Both the position numbers and the translations under genes were made by a program. The notes under the pieces are model-generated. The model saw only the letters and a program-made list of their open reading frames with translations, did no database searches and was not told the origin of the DNA. Of a stretch of 59,362 nucleotides of DNA, positions 1-21,149 are shown one piece after another. Numbering within the stretch: position 1 is the first letter of the stretch; the number at the start of each line of letters is the position of its first letter. Origin of the DNA: an uncultured bacterium. Lineage in GTDB: Bacteria; Spirochaetota; JAHITG01. The stretch spans positions 1-59,362 of the forward strand of contig CBDVEP010000002.1 of NCBI GenBank assembly GCA_965373035.1, read 5' to 3'.

Positions 1-2087
1 ATAAATATTTGTGCTTTTATAATACCCCGAATAATATCTCCATCTTTTATATTTTTTATATTAACAGCTATATCATGCATTGATTTTGAATACAATTTTT
101 GAAGTGTAAAATAAACAGGCTTTATAAATTTCCTATCCAAACTTATGGTTCCCATTGACTGGTAAGGATAACCAAGCATAGTGTACCAGTCAAAAGCACA
201 CCACCACACAACTCCACCTACCTGTGGAAATTCCTTAAAGGCTTTAAATGTATTAGTTGCAATTTCCACCTGCTCATCTACATTTAAAAATGAGTCATAA
301 GACCATATACCATATTCTGTAGCAATAAATGGTTTATGAGAATAAAAATGGACAAAATCATCTACAGCTTTTTTAGTGCCTTTATAAGCAATACCCTTTT
401 CTCCAAAAACACCACAATACATTGTTGCACCAACATAATCACAATCTCTATGAGAACCATCTCTGGTATCATGCCCGGCAGCAGACTGTCCAATAAGTCT
501 TGACCCATCAATCATATTTGCTGATTTTTTCAAGTCCCATATAAATTCTCTTCGTTCATTCTGCCACCCACATTCATTACATGTGGACCAGAATAATATA
601 GAAGCATGATTATAATCTCTATATATCATTTCAAGCCACATTTGCCTTGCAACTCCTCTTTCTTCACGCTGGAGGTCAAACTGGGGGCCGCCAAACCAAA
701 AAACAGGTATCTCCTCCATTACAGCAAGACCAATTCTATCTGCCAGAATATAAGTTAATGGATGATTAGGATAATGGGCTGTACGCAGGAAATTTGCATT
801 CATATCTTTAATTGCCTGTAAATCCTTTAAAATCCTTGAAGCATTATTAAAGGATAATGCTTTCCCTGTCTCCATATAATCTTCATGTCTTGCCACACCT
901 TTAAAAAATATCTTTTTACTATTTAATTTAAATCCTTCAGCATTTTCATGTTTTTCAATCTTACGAATACCAAATTGTGTATAAAATTTATCTATAATCT
1001 TTTTCTTCTTTTTTAATAATACTTCCAGAACATAAAGCTGTGGATTATCAGGTGTCCAGTATTTTACATTATTAAATTTAAATTCATAATTAATAACAGA
1101 TACTTTACCTGGATATACTTCAATACTTTTTACTGCCTTATTCTTATTTATCTTTAACCTTTGTTTAAAATCAGCAATATCTGAGGCTTTAGAACTTAAT
1201 ATGTTTTTATTATTAATAATTGTATTATAAATTTTTACTGAAGTTTTAATAGAATTTTTTTTATTTTCTGTATTATGAACATAAACACTTATTTTACACT
1301 TTGCGTTCTTCTTACCAGAAGGTTCAGACCTTACATCAGATCGAACAATATAAACTTTTTCACTTATCTCTATATATACATCCCTGTTTATTCCTCCATA
1401 ATTCCACCAGTCTGCTTTTTTATAAGGAACAATGTTGCGTTTATTTGATTTAAAATCAAAATCATTATCTTTAAGCCATGGGATATTATCCACACGCACT
1501 GCTATACTATTTTTTTTATTCCATGAGATATACCTGGTAATATTAAAAACAAATGGGGTATATCCTCCTTCATGAGTTCCTATCCACTTACCATTAATCC
1601 AAACATCTGTAACATAATTAGCACCATGAAAAAATAACCTGATTAATTTATCTTTATAAGCAGGATCAATTTTAAATCCAGTACGATACCATGTTCCATC
1701 CTGATAACGGTAAGGATAAGGATTATTAACAGAAGGTATTTTAACTTCTTTCCATGAAAAATCATTAAAATTTTTCTTATACCATCCTTTTGATTCTTTC
1801 TCAAGTTTAGCTATTATTTCTTCTGTTCTTTGCTTCAATGATAAGTCATGATTTACTTTTACTTTCTTAAAACGCCAGTAAGTATTTAAAGAAATAGTTA
1901 TCCTCTCCTGAGGTTCAAACGAAGGATATGGCAAATTATTTTGAAAAGGAATAAGCCCATCCTCTGTTTCTATAATTTCAAAAGTAGCTTTTTGAGTTTC
2001 ACATTGAGCTAAATAAGGATGGCAATAAATTAATAAGAAAAGAAAGAAGTAAGTTAAAAAAAATAATCGTATAATTGTTTTTAGCAA
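1..2087 (-). CDS. Glycoside hydrolase family 2 (beta-galactosidase/beta-glucuronidase-like), first ~695 codons; the 3' end runs off the window
   Basis: Not in the ORF track because the stop is off-window and the start is not ATG. My translation of the minus strand is open from base 1 to a TTG at 2087-2085, preceded by GGAAAAAGAG. It gives a signal-peptide-like MLKTIIRLFFLTYFFLFLLIY and the GH2 sugar-binding motif DVWINGKWIGTHEGGYTPFVFNIT. It is colinear with the GH2 at 9796-12873, with shared nucleotide strings such as 'tataatctctatatatcat' near 620 and 11420. Confidence 0.8.
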   Translation of the reverse strand, partial: MLKTIIRLFFLTYFFLFLLIYCHPYLAQCETQKATFEIIETEDGLIPFQNNLPYPSFEPQERITISLNTYWRFKKVKVNHDLSLKQRTEEIIAKLEKESKGWYKKNFNDFSWKEVKIPSVNNPYPYRYQDGTWYRTGFKIDPAYKDKLIRLFFHGANYVTDVWINGKWIGTHEGGYTPFVFNITRYISWNKKNSIAVRVDNIPWLKDNDFDFKSNKRNIVPYKKADWWNYGGINRDVYIEISEKVYIVRSDVRSEPSGKKNAKCKISVYVHNTENKKNSIKTSVKIYNTIINNKNILSSKASDIADFKQRLKINKNKAVKSIEVYPGKVSVINYEFKFNNVKYWTPDNPQLYVLEVLLKKKKKIIDKFYTQFGIRKIEKHENAEGFKLNSKKIFFKGVARHEDYMETGKALSFNNASRILKDLQAIKDMNANFLRTAHYPNHPLTYILADRIGLAVMEEIPVFWFGGPQFDLQREERGVARQMWLEMIYRDYNHASILFWSTCNECGWQNERREFIWDLKKSANMIDGSRLIGQSAAGHDTRDGSHRDCDYVGATMYCGVFGEKGIAYKGTKKAVDDFVHFYSHKPFIATEYGIWSYDSFLNVDEQVEIATNTFKAFKEFPQVGGVVWWCAFDWYTMLGYPYQSMGTISLDRKFIKPVYFTLQKLYSKSMHDIAVNIKNIKDGDIIRGIIKAQIF

Positions 2088-2202
2088 CTCTTTTTCCTGA
2101 TTTTAAGATTTTACAATTTAAATAAAATATATGTATTCAAAATCCAGTTGTCAAACAATTTATATGTATTCAACTAATGGGTCACTTATATATTCATTTA
2201 TT

Positions 2203-2328
2203 AGGAGTTAAGACTTTAGTCTTTTATAAGTCTTTTATAAAATTCTAAAAAATTAATTCCTTCATCATGAGCAATAAATTGCACCATAATTTGTATATAT
2301 TATTTTTTTAGAAAATCCGAATTATTAC
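2203..2328 (-). repeat. Copy A (3'-truncated, inverted) of a ~160-bp TIR-bounded intergenic element
   Basis: The reverse complement aligns almost base for base with 56115-56240 and 58256-58383 (gtaataattc[a/g]gattttctaaaaaa ... aagactaaagtcttaactcct). It lacks the last ~33 bp carrying the right-hand TIR. Confidence 0.75.
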
Positions 2329-2384
2329 GTGGCTTCATTTTCGTCCTTATCCTCTATGTCTTTGTGTCTCTGTGGCTATTATTT

Positions 2385-3638
2385 CTATGGGAGTTTTATA
2401 AACTCCAAATTATCAATATACAATGTAAACTCACCTTCAGGATAATCATCATCAACCTGTAATTTTATTTCCTTAAACTTTTTCTTATCAAATTTTTTCC
2501 ATTTAATTTCTTTAAAGGGAATCACTACTTTCTGCCATTTGTTACTAATTTTAATCTTGTTCTCTATCTCTATCTTAGCAGTTACATTCTTATTCACATC
2601 TCCTAATTCAAGTCTCCCTCCAACTCTGCCTTCTCCTTTTACCCAAAATTGTAAAGTATTATAAGGAGAAATATCTTTAGGTGTATCTAAATCTTCCCAG
2701 TTTTTTGGAGGAATGCCTTTTCCCTCAAAACCACCACAAAAAAAACATCCTGCCCAGCCGCCTTTTTTTTGATTAACATGAAATTTAAAAGAAGAATACC
2801 CTTTATATTTTTCTTTCATACTAATAGGTATATTCTCATAATAATCTGATTTTTCAATGGTTGATCTATTTCCCTCCCAACTGCCGCTGAAATTCCATGC
2901 ACCGTCTTCAATTGAATCATCCTCAAAAATTACTTTAAATCTCTTCTTCATTTTTATGCCTTTTTTAATAAAACGCAAATCATCAATATACAATATATAT
3001 TTTCCATAAGGGTCATTTTGTTCAACCATAAAAGTAATTCCTTTTAATGATTTTTTATTAAACCCATAAATCCAGCTAAACTCATCTAAAGGAATCTGAA
3101 CTTTCTGCCATTTTTCCTGTGGTTTAATATAATCAATTAAAAATAGTTTATCCGTGGTTAAATCATTAGTGTCCATTATCTCAATCTTTACATTTTTCAC
3201 TTTTGCTTTTCCTTCTGCTTTTATATAAAATTCTAATGTGTCACAATTACTTATATCTTTTCCTGTATTTGCTTCATCCCATGACCCTGCTGGTATCCCT
3301 TTATTATCAGCACCTGTTAAAATCTGAACACCACAATATCCTTTTTCAAAATGACTTATTTCCAGCTTTAAAGAAGATTTTCCTTTGTAAAACTCTTTTG
3401 TACTTACCAATATATTTTTATTCTTTCCTCTTGTACCAATTTTATCCTGTTCTCCCTGCCATGTATAACAATATTCCCATCCATCAAGAGGAGTTGGATC
3501 CTCTAAAAGCCAGTTTACTACTTTTGCACCTTTCTTCTTTGTAATCTTTTTAGCATCAAGATAATCAAAGGAAAAAACAAACAATCCTGTTAATAAAATC
3601 ACTAAACAATAAACTTTCATACTTTTTAACTTAAACAT
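2385..3638 (-). CDS. Secreted protein with two CIA30/CBM11-like beta-sandwich modules (A+B); a paralog of one repeat unit of the 1578-aa protein
   Basis: N-terminal hydrophobic signal (MKVYCLVILLTGLFVFSF). Each module ends with W.KV.IPL/F + LYIDxLxF (LYIDDLRFIKKG; FTLYIDNLEFIKLP) and contains GKDIS..DTLEFYIKAEG / PKDISPYNTLQFWVKGEG. The same motifs occur in the 4951-9687 product. Confidence 0.7.
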   Translation of the reverse strand: MFKLKSMKVYCLVILLTGLFVFSFDYLDAKKITKKKGAKVVNWLLEDPTPLDGWEYCYTWQGEQDKIGTRGKNKNILVSTKEFYKGKSSLKLEISHFEKGYCGVQILTGADNKGIPAGSWDEANTGKDISNCDTLEFYIKAEGKAKVKNVKIEIMDTNDLTTDKLFLIDYIKPQEKWQKVQIPLDEFSWIYGFNKKSLKGITFMVEQNDPYGKYILYIDDLRFIKKGIKMKKRFKVIFEDDSIEDGAWNFSGSWEGNRSTIEKSDYYENIPISMKEKYKGYSSFKFHVNQKKGGWAGCFFCGGFEGKGIPPKNWEDLDTPKDISPYNTLQFWVKGEGRVGGRLELGDVNKNVTAKIEIENKIKISNKWQKVVIPFKEIKWKKFDKKKFKEIKLQVDDDYPEGEFTLYIDNLEFIKLP

Positions 3639-3677
3639 AATAAAACCTCCTAAATTTTATTTTTTATATTTTTTATT

Positions 3678-3840: not shown

Positions 3841-3879
3841 TTTTTTTATTTTTTTCATATCTTTATTTCAACACCTCCT

Positions 3880-4857
3880 TTATTTACTCCTTTGTCCTTT
3901 TGAACTAAAAAATAAACTTAATGTAATAAAATGAGTATAACCCAGATCATCAGCAGGAACAATCCCATAATCCAACTTGCCAAGCATGGTGCTGGTTATA
4001 AGGTACTGTATTCCTAAGCCAGCCATATATTTATTTATATTTTCGTCTAAATCTAAATAATATCCTCCTCTTATAAATAATAAATCCATCATATCCCATT
4101 GTAAACCAAAACAAAAAACAGGTGATTCACTAAAATATTCATGTATATCTAAATTTAAATAAAAAACATTATGATTCATTTCATAAGCCTTATAATGGGC
4201 ACCTATTTTTAAAGCATAAGGGAGAATCTCTTTTTTTTCAAAATTTTCTAAATATACACCAATATTTTGTAATTGCAGCCCTAATGTTAAATTTTTATGT
4301 TTTTCAAGCCTGCTTTTTCCAGTTATGGAAGGGACTTTAAGATTATATTGCCCCCCTATATCAAAAGCAAGGGCTTGAGATGTATGCTCCATTAATGTTT
4401 CTGAAAAATATTTTATCTTTATTCCCGCACTTAAATCCTTTTTAATTAATCTGCCATAACCTATAGAAATGCCTAATCCGGAATATTTTAAAGGGTTATC
4501 CAGTTCAACACCATCTACATTATATTGAGGAAAATCTCCCATGCCCCAGTAATTTAAATTTCCAGTAATAATACCTTTTAATAATGGTTGGGAATAAGCT
4601 AAAGTGCTAAAATAAATATCAGATATCCATCGTAAATAAGTCAAAGAAACCTGTCTGCTTTTCACATATGCCAACCCACCTGGATTATAAGAATAAGAAC
4701 TAATCTCCGGGATATCTGCTGTTACAGCTTCTGCCATTGCTTTATCCCTGGCAGAATGACTTACCTTTAAAATCTGCCCCCCACGAGTCCCAACAGAGAT
4801 AACTAAAAACGGGAAGCATAGAATACAGATAAAAATAATTATAATTTTTTTCAACAT
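3880..4857 (-). CDS. PorV/PorQ-like outer-membrane beta-barrel (T9SS-associated family), copy 1
   Basis: Signal peptide followed by the family-typical N-terminus GTRGGQILKVSHSARDKAMAEAVTA. The rest shows an alternating amphipathic beta-strand pattern. Lies immediately downstream of a T9SS cargo gene. Confidence 0.65.
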   Translation of the reverse strand: MLKKIIIIFICILCFPFLVISVGTRGGQILKVSHSARDKAMAEAVTADIPEISSYSYNPGGLAYVKSRQVSLTYLRWISDIYFSTLAYSQPLLKGIITGNLNYWGMGDFPQYNVDGVELDNPLKYSGLGISIGYGRLIKKDLSAGIKIKYFSETLMEHTSQALAFDIGGQYNLKVPSITGKSRLEKHKNLTLGLQLQNIGVYLENFEKKEILPYALKIGAHYKAYEMNHNVFYLNLDIHEYFSESPVFCFGLQWDMMDLLFIRGGYYLDLDENINKYMAGLGIQYLITSTMLGKLDYGIVPADDLGYTHFITLSLFFSSKGQRSK

Positions 4858-4868
4858 AAAATCACCTC

Positions 4869-4953
4869 TTTATAGTTTATAGTTCGTAGTTCGTAGTTTA
4901 TAGTTTAAAGATTTACTAAAAACTATGAACTAAAAACTATGAACTATAAACTA
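4869..4953. repeat. R1 'TAGTTTATAG' imperfect inverted repeat (intercistronic hairpin)
   Basis: The left arm tagtttatagttcgtagttcgtagtttatagttt pairs with the right arm aaactatgaactaaaaactatgaactataaacta in 30 of 34 positions. The right end contributes the TAG stop of the 1578-aa gene. Confidence 0.8.
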
Positions 4954-7900
4954 TTCACACTTAATCAAAATCAATTTCGTGGTCTCGTTAACTTCTCCTC
5001 CATTGACTCTTATAATATATACACCACTGCTGACTAATTTTTTATCTTTATTTTCCTTAAACCAGTCAACTTTATTTAATCCTACTGCAAAATGCTCTTT
5101 CTTCTCCCAGACTAATTGACCTGCTATATTATAAATCTTAATATGAACATCATCCTCTTTTTGAACATTAAACCATATCTCTGTTTTATTATCTTCACAT
5201 TTAACATAATTAGGATAAGCAGCTAATTTTCTGTCAGGAAGACATAATACTCTAATATATTCAGATAAAGGGGTCTCATTACCATTATCATCGACTGATG
5301 ATATAGCAAAATAAATAGTATCCTTTGGTTTAAAACCTGTTACTTTTAATGAACTTGTATTTCTGCCATTTACAAAACAAGGAGAATCATCTGGTTTAAG
5401 CCCCTTACCAGTTTTACCAGGAGTATCAAAATTATAGTAAATATTGTATCCAACAATATAATAAGCAGCAGCAGGCTCCCATGTTATAAGAATATGATCA
5501 TTTTTATAAACAGCATTAAAGTTAGATGCAAAATCATGGGTTTTAAAAACCCCCTCACCAACACCTGTAAATTCCATATTATCAATATAACATGTAAAGT
5601 CACCTGTAGGATGATCACCTTCAACAAGATATTTAAAATTTTTAATTTTTCTTAAATCACAAAATTTCCCATCTATAGTCCAATTTATATCATTTAAAGG
5701 GATTTTTACTTGCTTCCATGTATCATTAACCTGAACATAATCAGTAATTTCTATCTTTTCACATGGATAGTCATCTGTATCAGCAAACTCCAGTCTTCCT
5801 ATTGTATTTGCATCCCCTTTTATCCAGAATTTAAAATATTTATAAGAGGATATATCTTTAGGAGCTTTAGAATCAGCATCTGAAGATGGAGGTGTGCCAT
5901 GTCCATTAGAATTACAGGAAATCCTCATATATCCCCAGCCATCAGAATTTGTCTTTTTAACATGAATTTTCAGTGAAGTATTACCATTATATTTTTCATT
6001 AGTGCACACAGGAATATTATGATCTGAATCAGGACTTGTTTCAATTATTACGCCATGATTGGTTTCAGCTCCACTATGATTCCATTTCATATCTACATTT
6101 CCTGAATCTTCATAAATAAATTTAAACCCTGGATTAGGTAATAACCCTGCATCTGTAAATCTTAATTCATCAACATATAAGGTCCAGTTCCCTGATGGGT
6201 CATACTGCTGTGCTGAAAAATTAATATTTTTAATTTGACTCTTATCTATTCCACTTAACCAGACAAAATCATCTAAAGGTATTTGAACTAAATGCCATAA
6301 TGTATTTGTTAAAACAACATAATCTTTTAATATTACTTTATCTGTTCCTTTATCATTTACATCTTTAATTTCTATCCAAGCAGAATTTATATCTGTTGAA
6401 TTTAAAGCTTTTACCCAAAATTCCAATTGATCAGTTCCACTTATATCCTTTCCTATATCTGCATCTGTTACCCAATCAAAAGCTTCACGACCTGTACCAT
6501 CAGCAGAAGTTGTGATAGCAGCATAGCACCAGCCAGGACCAAAATTATGTGTATAATGAAGTTTTAAACTTCTACTTCCACTGTGATTAGTTAATGAAGT
6601 TGGTATATCACTATCCTCTGACTTTTCTATCATATCCACTGCACCTGTATTTGTATTTGTTCCTACCCAGGCATATTGCCACCACCCATTATTATTCCTC
6701 TCTTCATATATCCATTTAACAGTAGTACAAGCTACAGCAGAAGCTGAATCTGACCAATCAGACATTCCTCCACCATGTGTATTAAAAGCCCTAACCCAGT
6801 AATAATATTTCACACTGCCAGATGTATTGTTATCTATATAACTTATTACTTCATCACCTAAAGTCGCAATTAAACTGGCACTTCCATGATTGGAAACTGT
6901 ATTTCTATATAATCTATACCCATCTTCATAAGGCACGTTTTCCCACCATATTCTTATTTTATTATTACCTATGGATGCAGCACTAATTTCAGGAACTTTT
7001 GGGGGCGTAACAATCGGTTCTTCTACTACACTTACAAAAGCCATATTATCAATATAACAGGTAAATTCTCCTTTCGGATGGTCACTCTCTATGACAAATT
7101 TCATTTCTTTTAATCTTGTTTTGTCAAAACTCTGCCAACCTATATCATCAAATGGTATTACAACTTTCTGCCATTTATTTGTAACCCAAACATGGTCTGT
7201 AATTTCAATTTTAGCAGTACTATTGGAACTTTTATCAGTCAATTCCAGCCTGCCAATAGTATTTGTATCACCTTTTATCCAAAAATTTAAAGCAGAATAT
7301 GATGATATATCTTTAGGAGCTTTAGAATCAGCATCTGAAGATGGAGGTGTGCCATGTCCATTAGAATTACAGGAAATCCTCATATATCCCCAGCCATCAG
7401 AATTTGTCTTTTTAACATGAATTTTCAGTGAAGTATTCCCTTTATATTTTTCATTAGTACTAATAGGTAAATTATCCCAGGCACCTGCTGTTTCTATGGA
7501 AAGACCACCATCAGTATTTGTAGCAGCTCCACTATGATCCCATACCATATCTACAATACCACTATCTTCATAAACAACTTTAAATTTTGGGTCAGCAGTT
7601 AACCCTGCATTTACAAATTTAAAATTGTCAATATATAATGTAAAGTCTCCTGAAGGATCATACTGTTCCATTTGAAAATCTACTCTTATTATCTTTGTCT
7701 TATCTATTCCGCCTTTCCAGCTAATATCATCTAATGGTATTTGTATCTGTGTCCATAATGTATGATTTAAATTAATATAATCTTTTAATAAAATTTTATC
7801 TGTTTCTCTTTTACTTTTATCAACAATTTTTATACCTACGGTATTTAATCCTGATGCATTAGATGCCTTAACATAAAACTCCATAGCATCTGTGTTGTTA

Positions 7901-9687: not shown

Positions 9688-9696
9688 TATATGTAA

Positions 9697-9793
9697 TTAG
9701 TTTATAGTTTTTAGTTCTTAGTTTTTAGTTTAAAAATGAACTATAAACTATGAACTATAAACTATGAACTATAAACTATAATCTATAAACTAA
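9697..9793. repeat. R1 'TAGTTTATAG' repeat: a left arm plus four tandem 14-bp units (tgaactataaacta) at 9737-9792
   Basis: Direct reading of the sequence. Three perfect 14-mers are followed by one degenerate 14-mer, opposed by ttagtttatagtttttagttcttagtttttagttt. Lies between the GH2 stop (9796) and the start of the giant gene (9687). Confidence 0.8.
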
Positions 9794-12700: not shown

Positions 12701-12873
12701 TCTTTATCATCATATTCAAACTGGGCATAAGGAATATCCCCCTGGAAAGGAACATATTCATTATTTATTTTCTTTAATTTAAAAGTTGATTCCGCCCCAA
12801 TAGAAAATATATTATTTGTCAGTATAAATATTATAGCAAATATTAAAATAACCTTATTTAATAATTTATACAT
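9796..12873 (-). CDS. Glycoside hydrolase family 2 with signal peptide and a ~350-aa C-terminal extension (Ig-like plus a beta-sandwich of unknown family)
   Basis: Motifs are DVWINGKYAGFHEGGYTPFAFDIT, FIRTAHYPNH, the acid/base region FWSACNEGG and the nucleophile region IIATEIG. The N-terminus MYKLLNKVILIFAIIFILTNNIFS is signal-like. Confidence 0.85.
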   Translation of the reverse strand: MYKLLNKVILIFAIIFILTNNIFSIGAESTFKLKKINNEYVPFQGDIPYAQFEYDDKDVITLNGKWKTQRIKLNHKLSLKKRDKVVIKALEKESRGRYKTSYNDKKWKKETIPHVNNPFPDRYQDGMWYRKEAVIPKKYKNKNLRIFFHGANYTTDVWINGKYAGFHEGGYTPFAFDITKYVKFGKKNTISVRVDNIPWLIDNKQDEITNEHDIVPYKTMDWWNYGGINRDVYIKVSEKTHIVRVNIKTEVIKKNGTQLKVGIVLNNTDKKEKKVKVRIKVYEAEITEKNILNPDAKSIINYKKEIAITAHSKAVINLNSKSVDILFINSVLSDIKIWSSKKPNLYVMNVILQYNNKVLENYYTQFGIRDIKIDKKNTSIKLNNKEIFLKGIARHEDYLKTGRALSFKDIKKVYNDLKIIKDANANFIRTAHYPNHTMTYILADRMGLCVMEEIPVMWFDGAEFDLQRKGRGIARGMWLEMIYRDYNRPSILFWSACNEGGDQKQRGEYIADVYKIAYEIDGSRLVGQSAFGIDTRDKTHHNCDFIGITSYSGVFYNNSCYYDTKKDLAKYNNFIPEKPIIATEIGIWSETEWGNIERQKEVASETIKAFKESKYGWGVIWWCAFDWFTMQNVPYQTMGLVTDDRKLFKPVYFELQRSYGEISAESLVIKFPLQNDIVKGELVLKLEIDPEFKVKAKAYKMNNESYKLIKNNTVNIDTLKYNDGEKVITVRAENDKGKVAAAQVKVYFDNYDDPPEVKIMNPSKFAVNTYDLRIIAKDDREGLQVFYRLDNGKKIQLPLLNKKKNVYRKLIDVSSFKNSSSHNVEIFLIDKAGNVVNKKLKFKIKRKKQIFVKLPFNLDRISYNTNKKDAFEWSFPGEELPKGKNFEYSADDSGVQFYLGNKEDKMNNVLVCKRQNLKGVKGKYGKIHVFGYSYWGNQKNECILEYKDGSIDKEILLLSEWNNAIPGFNNEIAWYCSQHHEHTGGEGEPDIAFYHTVLKCDKSKTLTNIILPDDNHKHIIGITLE

Positions 12874-12888: not shown

Positions 12889-12959
12889 TTTAGTTTATAG
12901 TTTATAGTTTGTAGTTCTTAGTTAATTTTTAAACTATAAACTACGAACTATAAACTAAA
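12889..12959. repeat. R1 'TAGTTTATAG' imperfect inverted repeat
   Basis: tttagtttatagtttatagtttgtagttcttagtt / aaactataaactacgaactataaactaaa. The right arm supplies the last codons and the TAG stop (12948-12950) of the PorV-like gene. Confidence 0.75.
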
Positions 12960-13805
12960 GGGTACCTCTATCCTATAAGATAAAGAAACAAAATGCGTTG
13001 ATAATAAATCATTAACAGATGATTGATAAGCATAACCAAATTCAAGTGTCTTTAATATTATGCAGGCACCAAATGAAAACTGCATCTCTTCATTAACTCC
13101 GCCTCTTAATTTTAAATAATCACCTATGCTCCATTCTGCCCCTACTCTACCAAACAATTCTTCATCTGTTATTTCGCCTTCTGAAATAAAAACTAAATTT
13201 TTATGTAATCCAAAAGAAAATCCAATTTTATAAGATCTTTCTATTGCCTCAACTTCCATTCCTGAAAATTTATCAAATACAGTATTTTGACATACTAATC
13301 CTATTTTAATGTTTTTTTTAATAAAATATAAAATCCCAATATCCATACTTCCTTTTTTTTCTTTTAACAATACAATATCTGAATCACTATAAAGCCATTG
13401 ATATTTAAAATTTAATCCAAAATAAAAATCCTTAATATGATTACCATAAGCTACAGCCATCCAATCTTCTCTATCTTCAAACCCTATCTCCCTTGAATTA
13501 TTTAATCCTCTCCAAAGAACACCCATACTACCCCAGTTTTTTGGTAAGGGACATATCACAGATAATAAAGTATGAAAAACAAACATTTCATGCCATTGAT
13601 AGCTGGAAACATAAAGATGAATATCTTTTATCGCTCCCAGTCCAGCAGGATTAATAAGCATGGCTTCAGAATCATCTGATAATGCAATATAGGCATTCAT
13701 TAAAGCAGCAGACCGTGTTCCAACTGGAAATCCATTATGAAAAGCCATTAAATGATTAGCTAAAACAAGCAAACTAATAATTATCAAAAACACATTTTTT
13801 ATCAT
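12948..13805 (-). CDS. PorV/PorQ-like outer-membrane beta-barrel, copy 2
   Basis: Signal peptide followed by GFPVGTRSAALMNAYIALSDDSEAMLINPAGLG, the same N-terminal signature as copy 1. Lies immediately downstream of the second T9SS cargo gene. Confidence 0.6.
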   Translation of the reverse strand: MIKNVFLIIISLLVLANHLMAFHNGFPVGTRSAALMNAYIALSDDSEAMLINPAGLGAIKDIHLYVSSYQWHEMFVFHTLLSVICPLPKNWGSMGVLWRGLNNSREIGFEDREDWMAVAYGNHIKDFYFGLNFKYQWLYSDSDIVLLKEKKGSMDIGILYFIKKNIKIGLVCQNTVFDKFSGMEVEAIERSYKIGFSFGLHKNLVFISEGEITDEELFGRVGAEWSIGDYLKLRGGVNEEMQFSFGACIILKTLEFGYAYQSSVNDLLSTHFVSLSYRIEVPFSL

Positions 13806-14020: not shown

Positions 14021-15271
14021 TTAATAAATCCTTATCATTTTATTAACTACTTTCTTCCCATATTCACTTTCAAAAATACCCTGGATAAAATAAAGACCTT
14101 TTTTTATTTTATTGCTGCTCTCTTTAGCCATATTATATTCAATTTCATGAAAGGTTAAAACTTTTTCTTCTCCATACAGTTTTTTATTAAAAATTACATC
14201 TATCTTTTTTCCATTAAAATCTAAAATTTTTAAAGTTACATAACTCTTAATCTTAAGTGAAAAAGAAATCATTAAATTATATTTATTAAAACAATAAGGA
14301 TTAGGTGATAGCTGAAAATTAATACTCTCACCTTTTTCAGTTGATGCATTAAAACTTATTTTCTGATAATTTCCTAAATCATCTTCCTGCAATTTCTGGC
14401 TGGCTCCTATTAAATCATAAACATCAGGGTCAGGACCAAGCTCATCTTTTCTGGGTAAATCACCACCACCACCATGCCATGGGTCTTTTTCATGAGGTGG
14501 ATAAATCTCTCTCATAATATCTCTTCCTTCATATCCTTCATGATGACCTGCTCCTACAATAAAATGCCAAACTGCATTTGTAGGATTGCCTATAAGAGTC
14601 TGGGGAATGGCTATTTCATATTGGTTCCATTCTGGTGACTGAAATAAAATATTATTCAAAGCCCCGGCAAAGCCCTTACTTCCTATTTGTTCTCCATCTG
14701 CATTCCACAGCCGGCATTCACAAGTTTTATATGCATAAATCAAATAATCAAAAAGAATACGGTCACAACCAAGCTCTACTGAAGGACCAAGGTCAGGATT
14801 ATTTCCATCTCCTTCAATAAAAGTTTTCATCCCTTTATCAGGTGTTCCTGTATCTATAGCAATAATCATAGAAGGTGCCCAATCTATACCAATTATTCCA
14901 TAAGTTTCTATATATAAATAAATGTATTCATTACTATAGGTTACACGGAACTCTTTTATATCAGCACTCTGTGGAGTAAAAATCTCATTTGTTAATGGAT
15001 AAATATAATCGCCATCTCCTGTATCATCATAAGGAGCATCATACCAGATATATTCATTGGAAGAATAAACTTCTGAATTATATGCTGTTGGTAATTTCCC
15101 TTTCCAATCAGAATTAGAAGCATCAACAGTAATAGAATGGCCCTGAATTTTAGAAAAATCCACTGTTACAATAGAATGATTAATAGTTGCATGATCTACT
15201 GCTGAATTAAGTTCATTTATTGATAAAAAAAAACATAGTAATAAAATTATATATAATTTTTTCATATTCAA
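14021..15271 (-). CDS. Secreted T9SS cargo protein with a glucodextranase-C-like (DDTGDGDY.YP) glycan-binding domain and a Por-type C-terminal sorting domain
   Basis: Signal peptide MKKLYIILLLCFFLSINELNS. DASNSDWKG...YIWYDAPYDDTGDGDYIYPLTNEIFTPQSADIKEFRV resembles the Glucodextran_C-type module. The C-terminus LSPNPYCFNK...VTLKILDFNGKKI...KKGLYFIQGIF...KMIRIY is CTD-like. Confidence 0.6.
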   Translation of the reverse strand: MNMKKLYIILLLCFFLSINELNSAVDHATINHSIVTVDFSKIQGHSITVDASNSDWKGKLPTAYNSEVYSSNEYIWYDAPYDDTGDGDYIYPLTNEIFTPQSADIKEFRVTYSNEYIYLYIETYGIIGIDWAPSMIIAIDTGTPDKGMKTFIEGDGNNPDLGPSVELGCDRILFDYLIYAYKTCECRLWNADGEQIGSKGFAGALNNILFQSPEWNQYEIAIPQTLIGNPTNAVWHFIVGAGHHEGYEGRDIMREIYPPHEKDPWHGGGGDLPRKDELGPDPDVYDLIGASQKLQEDDLGNYQKISFNASTEKGESINFQLSPNPYCFNKYNLMISFSLKIKSYVTLKILDFNGKKIDVIFNKKLYGEEKVLTFHEIEYNMAKESSNKIKKGLYFIQGIFESEYGKKVVNKMIRIY

Positions 15272-15280
15272 CCCTTAATT

Positions 15281-15411: not shown

Positions 15412-15418
15412 TTCTTTC

Positions 15419-16861
15419 TTAAAATTGAAATATTAACTTTCCTAAAAACTCATTATTATGTGTAATCCAGTACCTGTGTTCTATAAATGAAAATTCCATT
15501 GAAAAATATTTTGAAATAACTGCACCAAGGCAAAGCAGCCATCCATTTAACTTTGTTTGCCCGCCTTTAAATTCAGTATGATCAAACTTAATTGTTCTAT
15601 AAATTAAGCTGAATTTAAAAATATCCATTATTTGTTGACCGCAAATGCCTCCTCTATATTCATTTCTTGTGTCATCAATTTTATTATTATAAATAATTCC
15701 TTCCTCAAGCTGAAGTTTTTCAACATAAACATCAATTTTTGAAGAAAATGATTTATTAAATTTAATAACAAATCCTTTTTCTCCTGAAAAAATATCATTT
15801 AATTCATCTTCTCCCCTTCCCTCATCAAATAAACCATTATTCATATGAAGGGGATTATAATCAATATCTATATCTCTGTATATTACACTTAATTTAAACT
15901 GTGCACCTGCTTGTGCTTCTTCATCCGGAGACTGAAAACACACTGCAATCTCCCTTGCTTTTGGCTTTTGCCTCTCGGAAAAATCTAAAATCATACCATT
16001 CTGTCCTTTGCCATATAAATTCCATGCACCTTTATAAATATGAATATTTTTACTCATAATCGAATAAAGTAAATCAATCTTAAACCAGTGAATAGGTTTA
16101 AGCTCTAAACTTGATAAATAAATATCATTATTATAATTCAAATACCCTTCTCCCCATTTGTCAACCTGGTAATTTTCATGTACATATATTTCTTTAAAAT
16201 AAATCCCATCAAAAGGAGAAAGATATAAACATCCCCCGCCCCAGATAGCTGGATGCTCCTGCCATACTCCATCGAAATTCTGCTCAGCAATTGCACCAAG
16301 ATTTAATTGAACATTTTCAGGAAGCTGTGGGGTTAAAATTTTATTTGTAATATTATCATTAAAACATAATTTTGTATCATCTTCTGCATGCATGGCAATA
16401 AAAGCATCTATTTGCACATATTCTGATTCCTTTATATGAAAAAATAATCCCTGCAGGAAATTATCCTGCCAGGTTTCAGAATGAAAAACATAAGGAGAAT
16501 AATTAATCTTTTTATGCCCTATTCCCATGCTTAAACCCTTTAAAGGAGAATATTCTATTTCCATTGCCCAGATTAAAGTACTTGTATTATAATCTTCATT
16601 TAGTTTTTTATAAGATGACCCTAAGGCTGCTTTTAAATCTATGTAACGAGCTACTGTACCATTGAGAAACATCCTGAATTCACCATAAAGTTCCAAAGGT
16701 TCATTTTTAAAATATCTGACATCCTGTTCAAACTTCGCTTTCTCAAAAGTTACACCATAACTCTTCTGTACTATTAATAAAAACAAACAAGTTACAAAAA
16801 TTAAAGAAAACAACTGTAATTTTCTATGACTTTCTATCTTCATAATTGTTAAAAACCCCAT
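15419..16861 (-). CDS. Predicted outer-membrane beta-barrel of unknown family (480 aa); paralog of the upstream gene
   Basis: Signal/anchor LQLFSLIFVTCLFLLIVQKSYG, aromatic-rich alternating strands and a C-terminal ...LIFQF. The shared block INYSPYVFHSETWQDNFLQGLFFH matches LNYSPYLLKNYPWEGDIFRGLEFS in the neighbour. Confidence 0.55.
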   Translation of the reverse strand: MGFLTIMKIESHRKLQLFSLIFVTCLFLLIVQKSYGVTFEKAKFEQDVRYFKNEPLELYGEFRMFLNGTVARYIDLKAALGSSYKKLNEDYNTSTLIWAMEIEYSPLKGLSMGIGHKKINYSPYVFHSETWQDNFLQGLFFHIKESEYVQIDAFIAMHAEDDTKLCFNDNITNKILTPQLPENVQLNLGAIAEQNFDGVWQEHPAIWGGGCLYLSPFDGIYFKEIYVHENYQVDKWGEGYLNYNNDIYLSSLELKPIHWFKIDLLYSIMSKNIHIYKGAWNLYGKGQNGMILDFSERQKPKAREIAVCFQSPDEEAQAGAQFKLSVIYRDIDIDYNPLHMNNGLFDEGRGEDELNDIFSGEKGFVIKFNKSFSSKIDVYVEKLQLEEGIIYNNKIDDTRNEYRGGICGQQIMDIFKFSLIYRTIKFDHTEFKGGQTKLNGWLLCLGAVISKYFSMEFSFIEHRYWITHNNEFLGKLIFQF

Positions 16862-18324
16862 ATAAGAAGTTTAACTGCAAACTGATCAAAATCCTTGTAA
16901 TAATCTAAATTATTGGCATATTCTATTTCAAGGCTAATATGTTCAAATAGTTCACTTTTTGCTGCAATATAAAAAGCATTTATTTTTTTTACACCGCCAG
17001 AAAATGTCCCTTTTTTTGCTTTTTGAAATTGATAAATAATTTTTATCTGAAATTGCTTTAAATAAGTTTCTTCTAATCTTACTTGATGTTCTACTACTGT
17101 TCCATTTTTAAGAAAAGGTACAATTTCATTAAATTTAAATTTATGCTCTTTATATCCATATCCTATACTTGTTTTTTTTAAAAAATATTGTCTGACTATA
17201 CCAAAATACCCTTCCCGTCCACTGTAAGAATTATCTTCCGAATTAAAACTTCTTCTTATCTGATATTTGTTATCCAGGTAAACAGGAGCATATTTTTCAT
17301 CCAGTTTATTATAATTAAGTTCAATAACTGTCTGAAAAATTCCAACATATTCCCCTGCTATACTGGGGATTTTAATTCCTGCATTCCAGACAACTGGCTG
17401 TGAATGTGAATCTGATTTTTTAGTAAATAAATGTTTATCAATGTCAAAAAAATTTGTCTGAATAGTATAGTTTTTAATCTTAGAAAAAGAAACACCATAG
17501 ATACCGTTACATTTAAGATATTGAAAAAAATCCAGATTTAATTCTCCTAATACATATCTATTCTGAAAAACCTGACTGTATAAATCCTTCAGTGAAGTAT
17601 ATTGTAACTCCTCATTTAAAAACATAGCTGAACTGTTAAAAGAAAAAATATCATTTTCAGGCATTTTATAATCTATTTTTCCTCCATACCACCATGTTGG
17701 TCTTATTTTTTGTTCTATAGCACTGGTATAACCCATATCAATAGTAGAATAATCCCTGTCTATATTAACATCAATAGTAGGAACAGCATCAAAAAGACCT
17801 GATTCCTCTGGATTTACACCATTATTTGCTATAAAAGTTTGAAGAGAAAAACCGGAATACTCGAAAGAAAATTCCAATCCTCTAAAAATATCTCCTTCCC
17901 ATGGATAATTTTTTAATAAATAAGGTGAATAATTTAAATAAAGGCTTCCTAATTTTATATTTATATTAGCTTTACTTTTATACGCTGCCCCAAGGGAATT
18001 AATAAAAAACTGCCTGTCATCCCGCTTCCAGTGAAATTGAGAATATTCTGATTTAAATAAAGTATAAATAAACAGCTTTTCACTTAAGTTAACTCTCATT
18101 TTTAATTCAAGCTGCTGAAAAATTTCATTGGCTTTATTTGGAAAATTAGTATTGCAGCTAAACCGTGTTTTTGCCATTGTAAAAACCACAGCTTCATAAA
18201 ATTCAATCACACTGTCTTCAGAATAAACTGAATTTGAAAAAATAAAAATAAACCCAATGCATACAATAAAAATGTGTATTAATAAAACTTTTATATAATT
18301 TCTATTATTTTTATAAGATGCCAT
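16849..18324 (-). CDS. Predicted outer-membrane beta-barrel of unknown family (491 aa); paralog of the downstream gene, with a 13-nt overlap
   Basis: N-terminal anchor LLIHIFIVCIGFIFIFSNSVYS and a C-terminal ...LLIWGF. Homologous blocks are shared with 15419-16861. Confidence 0.55.
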   Translation of the reverse strand: MASYKNNRNYIKVLLIHIFIVCIGFIFIFSNSVYSEDSVIEFYEAVVFTMAKTRFSCNTNFPNKANEIFQQLELKMRVNLSEKLFIYTLFKSEYSQFHWKRDDRQFFINSLGAAYKSKANINIKLGSLYLNYSPYLLKNYPWEGDIFRGLEFSFEYSGFSLQTFIANNGVNPEESGLFDAVPTIDVNIDRDYSTIDMGYTSAIEQKIRPTWWYGGKIDYKMPENDIFSFNSSAMFLNEELQYTSLKDLYSQVFQNRYVLGELNLDFFQYLKCNGIYGVSFSKIKNYTIQTNFFDIDKHLFTKKSDSHSQPVVWNAGIKIPSIAGEYVGIFQTVIELNYNKLDEKYAPVYLDNKYQIRRSFNSEDNSYSGREGYFGIVRQYFLKKTSIGYGYKEHKFKFNEIVPFLKNGTVVEHQVRLEETYLKQFQIKIIYQFQKAKKGTFSGGVKKINAFYIAAKSELFEHISLEIEYANNLDYYKDFDQFAVKLLIWGF

Positions 18325-18349
18325 ATATTATACCTCCACTGGTTTATGA

Positions 18350-18376
18350 CAGGGACAGGTTTAAAACCTGTCCCTG
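18350..18376. promoter_or_regulatory. GC-rich 11-bp perfect hairpin between GH35 and the barrel pair
   Basis: cagggacaggt-ttaaa-acctgtccctg. No U-tract follows on the minus strand, so it is not a canonical intrinsic terminator. The GGAGG SD and ATG of the next gene follow ~20 nt later. Confidence 0.5.
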
Positions 18377-18386
18377 CTGTATCATT

Positions 18387-21149
18387 TTAAAATTTAACTT
18401 TTACCTCTATATCTTTTGCTTCATAATAAAAACCCAACTCTGGTTCAACCAATTTTGGGGGAACAAACCCAAATCCCTTAACAGGATGAATACCAGGTCC
18501 TTCTATTACAAAGGTTAATAAATTTCTTTCTTTTAATAAATTTTCAGGAATATAAAATTTATGCTGTGGTCCTACTTCTTCATATTTTCCAACTAAAAAT
18601 CCATTTATATAAATCAAGCACCTGTCAAAACACTCTTTTATATTCACATATAACGGGGTATCCCATTTTGCTTCCTTTTTTAATGTAAAGTTACGCCTTA
18701 GCCATATTATATTACCTACTTCTTCTTCAAAAATATATTTATCAGCCTGTGATGTCCTAATCCATCCCCTGTCATTAAATTTCTCTGAATAATATTCTTT
18801 ATTAACACCGCCAAGCCCTTGTTTTACTTTCCATTCTTTAAACACATACTGGTTATGTTTGTTTTTACTTTTATACATTACTGTAACTGGATAATATAAT
18901 CCACTTAATTTTTTAATAGGACCTTCATGAGGATGTGCTTTTGTATGAAAGGCATTTTCATAGCTGATTGCTACTATATTCCTGCCAGGCTGAATCTCTT
19001 CAGTAATGTCTAAATCAGGTGAGCCAATACCAATCCATTTGAATTTTCCATTAATGTAAACTGTTAACCTGTCCATCTCATTTGTCTGCAATTTTAATGT
19101 AACTTCATCACAATCCTCTGGCACTACAAACTCATTTCTGTACCAGTAATAACCATGAGTGAATAATTTTGCTTTTTCTAAAGGAGTATCTTTATCAATC
19201 ACTTTCCAATGGCTATCATTAAAATCAATCATTTTTTCTTCTGTATCTGAATAATAACGCCAATCATTTTCCCATTTTGCCTGATTTAGTGACTCCTCCT
19301 GAAAAGTATAATTTAATTCTGTTTGCCCTTGCTGATCTTTTTTTAAAGGAATTTCTTCTCCTTCAATTTCAATTTTTTTAATCTCTTTCATACTCCATAA
19401 TATTAATTTCTGGACATGTTTATTATTCATTATCTGAAAATTAAGATATGTTTCTTCATCTTTTTTCTCCCATTGTTTTAAATGATAAAAGTCACTCAGC
19501 AGAATAAAATCATCATCCACCCATATTTTATTAGCTTCTTTTTCCGGTAAAATAACAAAATGAATTTGATTGATTTCAAAAATATTTACATCTGAATGAC
19601 TGTACAAAAGTTTGTGCGAATTTTTTAAATATTTTTCATGCTTGATTTCTCCTTTTAATATTTCAATGGGGCTGTTAGACTGTATAGCCATTTCTCCTTT
19701 TATTTTTTCATTCCCTTTTAAAAAAATATATTGTATTCCATTAATTTTTTTCTTTAATAATATTTCAGATGTTGAATAAAGAATATGAATATCATCATGA
19801 ATATAAAAATCAACAGGCAATAAAAATGATGAACGAGGAATTAATGTTAAATCCTCATTCGGAAATTGTATTGTTTGTTTTATTAAATTTGAATCATAAG
19901 ATATTTTAACTTTCTTTTCTTCTGCCTCTAAATTTCTTATCAGGATCATCCCATATTTTGGATGCTTCCTGTATAATATTTTTATGTTTTCATAGCTGTC
20001 TTTAAAAGAATGACAGGTTACTGCCTTATTCTTAAACAATCTTAAAATATCTTCACCACCCTTTGCAAAATCCACATTATCATAAGTAGTTTCACCTTCT
20101 GTGATGATTTCCGGAAATGATTTTAAAAGATAAGCAAAATTCCTCAAGTGATGATATTTCTCATGGATTTCACCCCACTCCCGTATAGGCGAAGCACCAA
20201 AATCAAATGTAGTACAAATACCAATTCCACCATAATCCCCCTTAGCAGACCAATATGGAAAAGAAGTCCCCCCAGCAAGCATATAATAATTAAGCACAGA
20301 CGCTCCATAAGTTAATACAGTTTTAGTAATGGCATCTGTCAGTTCTGTCTCAACATTATATAATGGTTTCCCAAACTGGGCAAACCATCCTGCTTCCAGC
20401 TCTAAAATCATTAATGGTTTATCTGTCTGTACTTTTCGGCTTATCTCTATCTTCCTGTCAAAATCATTAAACTCCCACATCCATATCCATGGAATATTAG
20501 GATAGTAAGTATGTGTATTAATAATCTCTGTCCCCAGGATACAGCTTCCTTCATTTGTAAAAGCAGGAATATCAATCCCGGCATCCCTGACAAATTGCAG
20601 TAATTTTAAAAGATACTGCTTACCAACTTCTTTATTTTCAACAAGGTCACTAAAATCAATCAAATGGTCATATTCATTCTCCACTTGAATTAATACGATA
20701 TTTCCACCATTAGTAAATAAAAAAGGTTTTATAATCCCTGCAACTTCCTGATACCACTTTTTTACAATTTCAAGATATTCTTTATCAGGTAATCTTAAAG
20801 GGATATCTTTTTCTAAAAGCCAGTGAGGAAATCCACCGAAATCCCATTCAGCACAAATATATGGCCCTGGCTTAATAATAACATACAGGTTGTATTTTTT
20901 ACACAATTCTAAAAATTTTGGTAAATCACGATCACCATCCCAGGTAAGCTTTCCTTGTTTTTCTTCATGAAAATTCCATGGAATATATGTTGTAACAAGA
21001 TTACATCCAGCTTGTTTTATTTTTTTTAACCTGTCATCCCATAAAGCAGATGGTGTCCTGAAATAATGAAATTCTCCACCTATCAATATTTCTCTTTTTC
21101 CATTTAAAATCAGACTATGACTGTCATATTGAATAACTGCTTTTTTCAT
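18387..21149 (-). CDS. Glycoside hydrolase family 35 beta-galactosidase, apparently cytoplasmic (no signal peptide)
   Basis: GGEFHYFRTPSALWDDRLKKIKQAGCNLVTTYIPWNFHEEKQGKLTWDGDRDLPKFL and the acid/base region IQVENEY are typical GH35 N-terminal TIM-barrel motifs. The N-terminus MKKAVIQYDSHSLILNG has no hydrophobic leader. Confidence 0.85.
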   Translation of the reverse strand: MKKAVIQYDSHSLILNGKREILIGGEFHYFRTPSALWDDRLKKIKQAGCNLVTTYIPWNFHEEKQGKLTWDGDRDLPKFLELCKKYNLYVIIKPGPYICAEWDFGGFPHWLLEKDIPLRLPDKEYLEIVKKWYQEVAGIIKPFLFTNGGNIVLIQVENEYDHLIDFSDLVENKEVGKQYLLKLLQFVRDAGIDIPAFTNEGSCILGTEIINTHTYYPNIPWIWMWEFNDFDRKIEISRKVQTDKPLMILELEAGWFAQFGKPLYNVETELTDAITKTVLTYGASVLNYYMLAGGTSFPYWSAKGDYGGIGICTTFDFGASPIREWGEIHEKYHHLRNFAYLLKSFPEIITEGETTYDNVDFAKGGEDILRLFKNKAVTCHSFKDSYENIKILYRKHPKYGMILIRNLEAEEKKVKISYDSNLIKQTIQFPNEDLTLIPRSSFLLPVDFYIHDDIHILYSTSEILLKKKINGIQYIFLKGNEKIKGEMAIQSNSPIEILKGEIKHEKYLKNSHKLLYSHSDVNIFEINQIHFVILPEKEANKIWVDDDFILLSDFYHLKQWEKKDEETYLNFQIMNNKHVQKLILWSMKEIKKIEIEGEEIPLKKDQQGQTELNYTFQEESLNQAKWENDWRYYSDTEEKMIDFNDSHWKVIDKDTPLEKAKLFTHGYYWYRNEFVVPEDCDEVTLKLQTNEMDRLTVYINGKFKWIGIGSPDLDITEEIQPGRNIVAISYENAFHTKAHPHEGPIKKLSGLYYPVTVMYKSKNKHNQYVFKEWKVKQGLGGVNKEYYSEKFNDRGWIRTSQADKYIFEEEVGNIIWLRRNFTLKKEAKWDTPLYVNIKECFDRCLIYINGFLVGKYEEVGPQHKFYIPENLLKERNLLTFVIEGPGIHPVKGFGFVPPKLVEPELGFYYEAKDIEVKVKF

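Follow-up and report, generated by a model that had tools for sequence, protein, structure and literature searches.

How does a diderm bacterium outside the Bacteroidota capture a glycan and bring it across the outer membrane? Outer-membrane glycan uptake is well understood mainly in the Bacteroidota, where it depends on SusC/SusD pairs, and for a few proteobacterial porins; in other diderm phyla it is largely obscure. The question is raised by a 59,362-nucleotide stretch of DNA from an uncultured bacterium (contig CBDVEP010000002.1; this whole stretch is called the window below), whose first 21,149 bases hold a cluster of genes for glycosidases, predicted carbohydrate-binding proteins and putative outer-membrane barrels. 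An earlier reading of the letters and translations alone (the sequence-only reading) had described the cluster as an analogue of a polysaccharide utilisation locus (PUL), coupled to type IX secretion (T9SS) and free of SusC/SusD, in which arrays of carbohydrate-binding modules (CBMs) capture the glycan. Following this up, we found in related contigs a conserved cassette of four genes, which encode two paired barrels (A and B), a secreted Glucodextran_C protein with a C-terminal sorting domain (CTD) and a small PorV-like barrel. We propose, and give somewhat better than even chances, that the cluster is a carbohydrate-utilisation locus built on this cassette, an undescribed outer-membrane module that may be a way to capture and import glycans without SusC/SusD.

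The cluster (bases 1–21149) comprises ten genes, all on the minus strand. In order of transcription they encode a family 35 glycoside hydrolase (GH35), barrels of 491 and 480 amino acids (aa), a 416-aa Glucodextran_C protein, a 285-aa PorV-like barrel, the family 2 enzyme GH2b, a 1578-aa CBM array, a 325-aa PorV-like barrel, a 417-aa CBM protein and a second family 2 enzyme, GH2a. The genes for the 491- and 480-aa proteins overlap by 13 nt and the remaining junctions measure 62 to about 280 nt, so the co-directional arrangement with short junctions stands as first described. Every protein of the cluster except GH35 begins with a signal-peptide-like N-terminus; signal peptides were judged by eye, directly in the translations, from a basic n-region, a hydrophobic core and a small-residue cleavage region. 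The larger open reading frames (ORFs) that we scanned, which cover nearly all of the window, gave no match to SusC/SusD, TonB_dep_Rec or Plug, in agreement with the sequence-only reading, and no SusC/SusD or TonB-dependent receptor was found among the called genes of four related loci (L001, L003, L004 and L007).

The cassette recurs beside glycosidase genes

We read contigs encoding homologues of the cluster proteins together with 64 metagenome loci retrieved with an alignment of the 416-aa protein and its orthologues (hereafter GluDex), all mapped with our own hidden Markov models (HMMs) and cited here by number. Four genes follow a fixed order: A-type barrel, B-type barrel, Glucodextran_C/CTD protein and PorV-like barrel of about 284 aa. 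All four are present in six contigs (the window, L003, L007, L012, L013 and L015) and adjacent in the first five of these, the A gene being cut by the contig start in L012 and L013. L015 is rearranged, with the GluDex/CTD and PorV-like pair right after GH35 and the barrels after GH2. Nine further contigs are cut: in L001, L004 and L018 the contig ends after the third gene, and L002, L005, L006, L014, L016 and L017 are short contigs with a partial cassette. Recurrence of the gene order in relatives, a check proposed with the sequence-only reading, was thus found in six complete and nine partial contigs.

The recurring core reads (GH35 or GH2), barrel A, barrel B, GluDex/CTD protein, PorV-like barrel, (GH2), at 35–56% protein identity, and in eight loci the gene directly upstream of barrel A encodes GH2 or GH35. 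The window's cluster has a compact counterpart in L003, in which GH2, A, B, GluDex and PorV-like genes are followed by a GH2 enzyme with a CTD, a second PorV-like gene and GH35. LacI regulator genes accompany the cassette in five loci. The gene comes after it in L007, L013 and L014; in L017 the regulator is encoded on the opposite strand, 70 nt downstream; and in L001 it stands 4.4 kb upstream of the cassette. L001 also has a gene for an ABC (ATP-binding cassette) solute-binding protein (SBP_bac_1) directly before GH35. Together with the pairing of CTD and PorV-like genes described below, the recurrent order, the LacI genes and the solute-binding protein support a PUL-like carbohydrate locus whose genes belong together functionally, as opposed to a chance neighbourhood; on this point the sequence-only reading appears to have been right.

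Which protein would capture the glycan? The sequence-only reading had given this role to the CBM arrays, but genes for such arrays were not found in the other fetched loci, save one weak match in L053. The arrays are an accessory of this genome, outside the conserved core, and the conserved capture component would instead be the Glucodextran_C/DOMON-like protein. The modules of the arrays had been called CIA30/CBM11-like. The Pfam model CIA30 (cut-off 24) is indeed passed by both the 1578-aa protein (36 bits) and the 417-aa protein (31 bits), as is CBM30 (cut-off 27; 95 and 54 bits), whereas CBM11 remains below its cut-off (21 against 27 bits). The 417-aa protein (2385..3638, minus strand) consists of a single unit of two CBM30/CIA30-like modules behind a signal peptide. 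The 1578-aa protein (4951..9687, minus strand) has three such units, at residues 70–405, 509–887 and 990–1373, which are separated by fn3 domains (47 bits) and are each 38–44% identical to the 417-aa protein by BLAST. The 417-aa protein gives no match to our own CTD HMM and has no lipobox either; it may be periplasmic, which would be odd for a paralogue of a surface-displayed array.

In GC content (0.28–0.33) and GC skew the cluster does not differ from the rest of the window, and we therefore rejected the idea of a horizontally acquired island. An alignment of A-type barrels found no relative among 185,579 GTDB species representatives, where the cassette is absent or undetected, and exact look-ups of the 480-aa protein and of protein P0010 returned no contig. 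The window also carries two AAA_14/DUF4143 ATPase genes (22646..23812, plus strand; 56982..58124, minus strand), the first of which adjoins the sugar locus; a gene of this kind adjoins it likewise in L001 (2427..3587).

The paired A and B barrels

The A-type barrel (491 aa; 16849..18324, minus strand) and the B-type barrel (480 aa; 15419..16861, minus strand) had been named as paralogous barrels by the sequence-only reading, and both parts of that claim are supported. The two proteins are distant paralogues, 19% identical over their full length (E = 3e-11), and the AF2 models of both are all-beta (A, pLDDT 71 and pTM 0.68; B, pLDDT 67 and pTM 0.65), the models having been built on shallow alignments of 9–10 sequences. 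Neither protein matched a Pfam or NCBIfam model (E <= 0.01–0.1), the OprD/Occ and AlgE/Alginate_exp models included. When the models were compared with the PDB by Foldseek, AlgE, MOMP and OccK headed the matches of the A barrel (TM about 0.5, E = 3e-10), and the best matches of the B barrel were OccD2, OccK11, OprD and AlgE; over both barrels the probability was 1.0, E ranged from 3e-10 to 1e-7, TM from 0.43 to 0.57 and rmsd from 8 to 10 Å. The window proteins end in IWGF (A) and IFQF (B), and complete members of the family end in F or W, apart from three A-type members that end in L. Outer-membrane proteins usually end in an aromatic residue. From the all-beta models, the OprD, AlgE and MOMP matches and the C-terminal residue, we predict that these proteins are outer-membrane barrels of the size class of substrate-specific channels. 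They have no plug and no TonB box.

With OprD/Occ, AlgE and Campylobacter MOMP (18 strands), their best structural matches, the A and B barrels have in common their size, all-beta fold and aromatic C-terminus. They differ from them in the absence of detectable sequence similarity, in always forming an adjacent A/B paralogue pair, and in their roughly 20–22 strand segments by DSSP, an ambiguous count in models of moderate pLDDT. Among the known barrels, OccK2 binds glucuronate and AlgE passes a polysaccharide chain. Fold and synteny are what suggest that a glycan may be imported through the A and B barrels.

The family is tiny. In an exhaustive profile search, 18 of 1.84 billion cluster representatives matched, all with E < 1e-10 and none in the twilight zone, and word-indexed searches of 5.8 billion proteins with barrel queries gave 3, 5 and 7 matches. 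In 11 of 11 readable loci the A-type gene is followed immediately by the B-type gene, often with overlapping stop and start, and the family was found essentially only in the context of the sugar-locus cassette.

The Glucodextran_C protein

The 416-aa protein (14021..15271, minus strand) contains a Glucodextran_C domain (PF09985; 57.1 bits, cut-off 22; residues 80–303), which the sequence-only reading had missed, and ends in a predicted T9SS-type CTD (residues 322–416). Its orthologues are 37–61% identical, have an invariant DDxGDGDYxYP motif and also carry a precomputed Pfam Glucodextran_C match; a PDB sequence search with the 416-aa protein came back empty. Glucodextran_C is a member of the DOMON-like superfamily with a CBM9-like beta-sandwich; it is known as an accessory module of GH15, GH57, GH65 and GH53 enzymes (PMC10074034; PMC8447715). 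In six metagenome loci (L033, L034, L036, L039, L040 and L041) a Glucodextran_C-like domain is fused C-terminally to GH2; the fusion in L036 is a 1302-aa close orthologue of GH2b, and L040 has GH2 genes in tandem. These fusions argue that the free-standing GluDex protein may share its glycan with the GH2 enzymes.

The CTD of the 1578-aa protein (residues 1491–1575) matches TIGR04183 over residues 1491–1573 with 35.2 bits (cut-off 23); the Pfam model gives 22.7, under its cut-off of 27. In our own CTD HMM the last 95 residues of the 416-aa protein align with this domain. Of five GluDex family members, four match the PorU model in its CTD part (best E = 5e-9), and TIGR04183 is matched by two (best E = 4e-5), which supports a T9SS-type domain in the 416-aa protein at the level of the family.

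CTD genes are paired with genes for PorV-like barrels

Exactly two proteins in the window end in a CTD by our own HMM, the 416-aa and the 1578-aa protein. The gene for each is followed by that of a small barrel, 285 aa (12948..13805, minus strand) and 325 aa (3880..4857, minus strand) respectively, which we propose as its cognate anchor. The 325-aa barrel passes the NCBIfam model PorV_fam (NF033709; 136 bits, cut-off 90). So does a 424-aa barrel encoded outside the cluster (24998..26272, plus strand; 113 bits), which the sequence-only reading had also missed, so that the barrel family is multi-copy in this organism. When the 285-aa family was aligned with a five-barrel profile built around two PorV_fam-passing members, hhalign gave 99.1% (E = 4e-19, 236 columns). 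Scores of the 325-aa barrel with the equivalog models are 81 bits for PorQ (NF033711, cut-off 220) and 71 bits for PorV (NF033710, cut-off 250), far under both, and we would count none of the three window barrels as a PorV or PorQ orthologue.

The same arrangement extends through the fetched loci, in which each CTD-ending ORF with enough downstream DNA precedes a PorV-like barrel gene, at a distance of -6 to +216 nt. A PorV-like orthologue follows the GluDex gene in L003, L007, L012, L013, L014 and L017. The pairing was also seen for the GH2-CTD enzyme of L003 and a 500-aa GluDex protein of L015 (both judged by eye), and for more distant Glucodextran_C/CTD proteins in L046, L047, L052 and others. 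These loci are not all independent, several being homologous contigs, and the rule covers at least three kinds of cargo, namely GluDex proteins that differ in size, the CBM array and the GH2 enzyme. The pairing of CTD and PorV-like genes is systematic.

We also considered the A and B barrels as a translocon for the CTD cargo. This was rejected because the second cargo/anchor pair of the window and the GH2-CTD/PorV-like pair of L003 have no A/B pair of their own, and because barrels of this size are too narrow for folded domains.

Within the T9SS itself, PorU remains on PorV, and PorZ on PorQ, through CTDs that are not cleaved, and type B cargo genes cluster with cognate PorP/SprF genes whose products are thought to anchor them (PMC10202324). 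The pairs described here resemble PorU-PorV, PorZ-PorQ and SprB-SprF in that a CTD protein goes with a small FadL-like barrel, which in the known pairs holds the uncleaved CTD (PMC10202324). The GluDex CTD best resembles PorU's own retained CTD, which fits anchoring by a retained CTD. Several differences should be noted. The cargo here would be a carbohydrate-binding protein and not a T9SS component or gliding adhesin; unlike those of the SprB-SprF type B pairs, the barrels are of the PorV/PorQ family, not PorP/SprF, and the CTDs are type A-like or ambiguous; and, unlike in PorU-PorV and PorZ-PorQ, the barrels score below the PorV/PorQ equivalog cut-offs and the host lineage apparently lies outside the described range of the T9SS. 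Display of carbohydrate-active enzyme (CAZyme) or binding modules by a Por-type CTD, in place of lipoprotein surface glycan-binding proteins, is known from Cytophaga hutchinsonii and 'Ca. Paraporphyromonas polyenzymogenes', which are Bacteroidota with a full T9SS and catalytic cargo, namely cellulases (PMC5831590, PMC11611037). Unlike such T9SS CAZymes, neither CTD cargo in the window is catalytic, and a separate barrel is encoded next to each.

The gene for the 424-aa barrel opens a plus-strand run (24998..31053) that continues with a TPR protein of 635 aa and then a protein of 946 aa whose BNR_2/sialidase-like and OmpL47-type matches are weak. The 946-aa protein has no CTD by our own HMM, and the region may be another envelope or surface module.

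The glycosidases and the likely substrate

GH2b (1025 aa; 9796..12873, minus strand) and GH2a (3..2102, minus strand), of which the window contains the N-terminal approximately 695 aa before it runs off the window start, are 51% identical, have signal peptides and contain Glyco_hydro_2_N, Glyco_hydro_2 and Glyco_hydro_2_C above the Pfam cut-offs. The catalytic motifs CNE and ATE(I/Y)G (ATEIG in GH2b) can be read in the sequence. Both the two secreted GH2 paralogs and the leaderless GH35 of the sequence-only reading were therefore confirmed. Translation of GH2a likely starts at a TTG at 2087, preceded by AGGAAA, and a promoter-like TTGACA-17-TATATT lies at 2154..2126. The PDB entries nearest to GH2b are the beta-galacturonidase 7vqm and the beta-glucuronidase (GUS) 6ncy. 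Its residues from about 590 to 680, the part of the TIM barrel after the nucleophile, matched in the PDB only the GH5_18 structures 7lr1 and 7lr7 (E = 0.003), and no GH2 glucuronidase or LacZ structure. In its last third, the catalytic barrel is similar to GH5_18 enzymes of the beta-mannosidase type, and the GH2s of the window may form an atypical subgroup. A conserved C-terminal extension of about 300 aa, ending in HKHIIGITLE, gave no family match. Because the GH2s are Sec-exported and have neither a CTD nor a lipobox, we infer a periplasmic location, for GH2b in particular.

GH35 (920 aa; 18387..21149, minus strand), the first gene of the cluster, matches Pfam Glyco_hydro_35 (PF01301) with 294.5 bits (cut-off 27) and has BetaGal_dom2, gal-bd and ABD2 accessory domains; its top PDB matches are beta-galactosidases. 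The window protein and its orthologues in L001, L003, L015 and L017 have no signal peptide and start straight in the catalytic domain, and GH35 is predicted to be cytoplasmic. Its family matches point toward beta-galactosides, and our best guess for the substrate is a glycan containing beta-linked galactosides. In L007 (NCBI metagenome-assembled genome (MAG) contig JAQTRT010000100) a Pel9A-like beta-helix protein of the pectate-lyase type is encoded at 7616..9744 (plus strand), after the cassette and its LacI gene, so that the cassette may serve different glycans in different lineages.

The host lineage

The rest of the window is largely housekeeping: a run of rpsB-tsf-pyrH-frr-uppS-cdsA-dxr-rseP-ispG, together with panB, panC and dapL. 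The nearest genome among GTDB species representatives is the MAG MM_PC_MetaG.mb.203 (RseP 69% and IspG 73% identical, with the same gene order), and the next RseP and IspG matches, at about 50%, come from Firmicutes. The authors of that MAG report a GTDB classification of p__Spirochaetota with class unassigned (supplement of PMC8275790), so that any phylum placement of the host depends on two genes and an old GTDB release. By this comparison the host appears to be an uncultured low-GC diderm, near or in the Spirochaetota, and is probably not a member of the Bacteroidota. In a host outside the Bacteroidota the absence of SusC/SusD is expected and not remarkable. What is unexpected in such a lineage is the presence of Por-type CTDs and PorV-family barrels, since the T9SS has been reported only in the Bacteroidetes or the wider Fibrobacteres-Chlorobi-Bacteroidetes (FCB) group, to which reviews confine it.

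A proposed mechanism

Taken together, these data suggest the following course. The 416-aa Glucodextran_C/DOMON-like protein would be exported by Sec and then cross the outer membrane by a T9SS-type route, and the 1578-aa array, with its six CBM30/CIA30-like modules, would take the same path. Each would be held at the surface non-covalently, by its uncleaved CTD bound to the small PorV/PorQ-family barrel encoded immediately downstream, as PorU is on PorV and PorZ on PorQ. The displayed GluDex protein and CBM array would bind the glycan, and the obligately paired A and B barrels, with their OprD/AlgE-like fold, would form a passive, substrate-specific outer-membrane channel for it. In the periplasm the two Sec-exported GH2 enzymes would trim the imported glycan as exo-glycosidases. 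An inner-membrane transporter encoded outside the locus would import the products, the leaderless GH35 would finish hydrolysis in the cytoplasm, and in relatives a LacI-type repressor would control the set.

Such a locus would resemble the SusC/SusD PULs of Bacteroidota in bringing together glycosidases, proteins that bind glycan at the surface, a channel through the outer membrane and (in relatives) a regulator, and in dividing breakdown among compartments, with binding at the surface, exo-enzymes in the periplasm and a last step in the cytoplasm. It would differ from them in several ways. There is no SusC-like TonB-dependent transporter and no SusD-like lipoprotein, the channel candidates being plug-less barrels of about 480 aa; the binding proteins have CTDs, not lipid anchors; the regulator is of the LacI type and not a hybrid two-component system or an extracytoplasmic function (ECF) sigma/anti-sigma pair; and the host is probably not a member of the Bacteroidota. 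The locus is a concrete, conserved and testable candidate for glycan uptake in other diderm phyla, comprising an undescribed family of paired barrels, a CAZyme-associated Glucodextran_C module and cargo-specific PorV-like barrels. It would also extend to carbohydrate-binding proteins the principle of a CTD protein held by its cognate barrel, as in PorU-PorV, PorZ-PorQ and SprB-SprF, in a lineage apparently outside the phyla with a described T9SS.

A number of observations weigh against this mechanism. CBM30 and CBM11 relatives bind beta-glucans, which has no obvious fit with GH35. No regulator or inner-membrane transporter is visible in the window. No endo-acting enzyme is present at the locus, which puts in question the size of the glycan that reaches the barrels; the substrate is either an oligosaccharide or a polymer that passes, threaded as a chain, through the channel. 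The structural matches of the barrels are modest (TM about 0.5, pLDDT 67–71), and the top match of the A barrel, AlgE, is an exporter. Taken alone, the CTD of the 416-aa protein scores 14.9 bits with TIGR04183, below the cut-off of 23, and the 285-aa barrel scores 39 bits with PorV_fam, under 90; of the two Por-type CTDs and two PorV/PorQ-like barrels of the sequence-only reading, one of each thus stands by its own score and the other at the level of its family. Galactan specificity is not established: the GH2s score 92–190 bits with NCBIfam equivalogs whose cut-offs are 544–2000, so that no model of a specific activity is reached, their nearest structures are uronidases, and the end of their barrel is GH5_18-like. 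Sugar binding by Glucodextran_C has never been directly shown (PMC10074034). Lastly, no T9SS core gene (SprA/Sov, PorK/L/M/N or GldK/L/M/N, PorU) was found in the 59-kb window, and the T9SS has been found only in Bacteroidetes (PMC4793230), against the Spirochaetota label of the nearest genome. The features of the locus that suggest the T9SS coupling named in the sequence-only reading are only the CTDs and the PorV-family barrels.

Alternative explanations

A stronger form of the proposed mechanism is that the four cassette genes make one physical machine, a TonB-independent functional analogue of SusC/SusD composed of unrelated components and lying outside the FCB group, in which a heteromeric A/B channel is capped or fed by a GluDex protein tethered through its CTD to the PorV-like barrel. 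We regard this as possible but doubtful. If true, it would extend display of the CTD/PorV type beyond the lineages for which it is described and give it a part in nutrient capture.

A second possibility keeps the rest of the model and changes the route to the surface. A CTD and its adjacent PorV/FadL-like barrel would be a self-contained pair, in which the barrel, or the general outer-membrane assembly machineries BAM or TAM, places and holds the cargo without a canonical T9SS. The lineage of the nearest genome, set against the reported confinement of the T9SS to the Bacteroidetes/FCB group (PMC4793230), and the lack of T9SS core genes within 59 kb would fit such a pair. So would the strict adjacency of one cargo and one barrel, in frames that overlap or nearly abut, the failure of any barrel to reach the PorV or PorQ equivalog cut-offs, and the behaviour of the CTDs, which match FlgD_ig, CHU_C and Por_Secre_tail about equally and weakly. 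However, TIGR04183 is passed by the CTD of the 1578-aa protein and PorV_fam by two barrels; genes of the T9SS core usually lie dispersed in a genome, so that little can be concluded from their absence in one window; the phylum assignment depends on two genes and an old GTDB release; and a FadL-type barrel of 14 strands is too tight for folded domains to pass. We think display of this kind unlikely. Should the lineage lack a T9SS core, the pairs would suggest that CTD proteins are displayed by another route.

It is less probable still, and in our view quite improbable, that the cluster is an exo-glycosidase operon and nothing more, with the barrels, the GluDex protein and the CBM arrays being general porins and adhesins that lie nearby and have no share in glycan uptake. 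No family model covers the barrels, and in fold they resemble general porins no less than specific ones. The promoter and terminator scans leave room for this idea, as they neither support nor exclude a single operon: a sigma-70 scan was at chance level (116 promoter-like sites against 126 expected) and a terminator scan of the cluster showed no intergenic terminator. An Rfam scan found no riboswitch in the cluster. Yet the same four genes keep the same order beside GH2 or GH35 at only 35–56% protein identity, Glucodextran_C is fused to GH2 in other lineages, LacI regulator genes abut the cassette, and the barrel family is essentially confined to it.

Export or remodelling of a surface polysaccharide, with an AlgE-like export pore, an envelope-attached Glucodextran_C protein and glycosidases that trim as AlgL does in the alginate operon, would suit the AlgE alginate exporters at the top of the A-barrel matches, the Pfam description of PF09985 as an SLH-like (S-layer homology-like) binding module and the Pel9A-like protein after the cassette in L007, but is very improbable, since no glycosyltransferase, polymerase, flippase or Wza/Wzc-type gene was found in the window or related loci, catabolism is what a cytoplasmic GH35, LacI repressors and an ABC solute-binding protein typically mark, and the barrels are matched nearly equally well by OprD/Occ uptake channels and by AlgE.

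Other features of the window

Beyond the cluster, the window contains a set of nucleotidyltransferase/HEPN-type toxin-antitoxin genes (21903..22364, plus strand; 31159..31656 and 31921..32773, minus strand; 40412..40864, plus strand), made up of two HepT-like proteins, one with an adjacent Polbeta/MNT gene, and two DUF6036/AbiEii-like nucleotidyltransferases. A partner-switching set on the minus strand (32790..36543) consists of a HATPase_c_2 anti-sigma-type kinase, a STAS protein and a HAMP-SpoIIE phosphatase, and is adjoined by a GAF-GGDEF diguanylate cyclase. A further minus-strand pair of genes (36707..40038) encodes an SbcC-like ATPase of 712 aa (AAA_27, AAA_23) together with an SbcD-like metallophosphoesterase of 396 aa.

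Ribosomal protein S2 (48077..49213, minus strand) is 378 aa long, with a C-terminal extension of about 150 residues, and partly matches the NCBIfam model 'S2, sunset domain variant' (305 bits, cut-off 710). A 339-aa protein (53016..54035, minus strand) has a borderline match to the Protochlamydia outer-membrane protein family Pom (22.5 bits, cut-off 22.4). The single Rfam match in the window is a tRNA gene at 50357..50440 on the minus strand.

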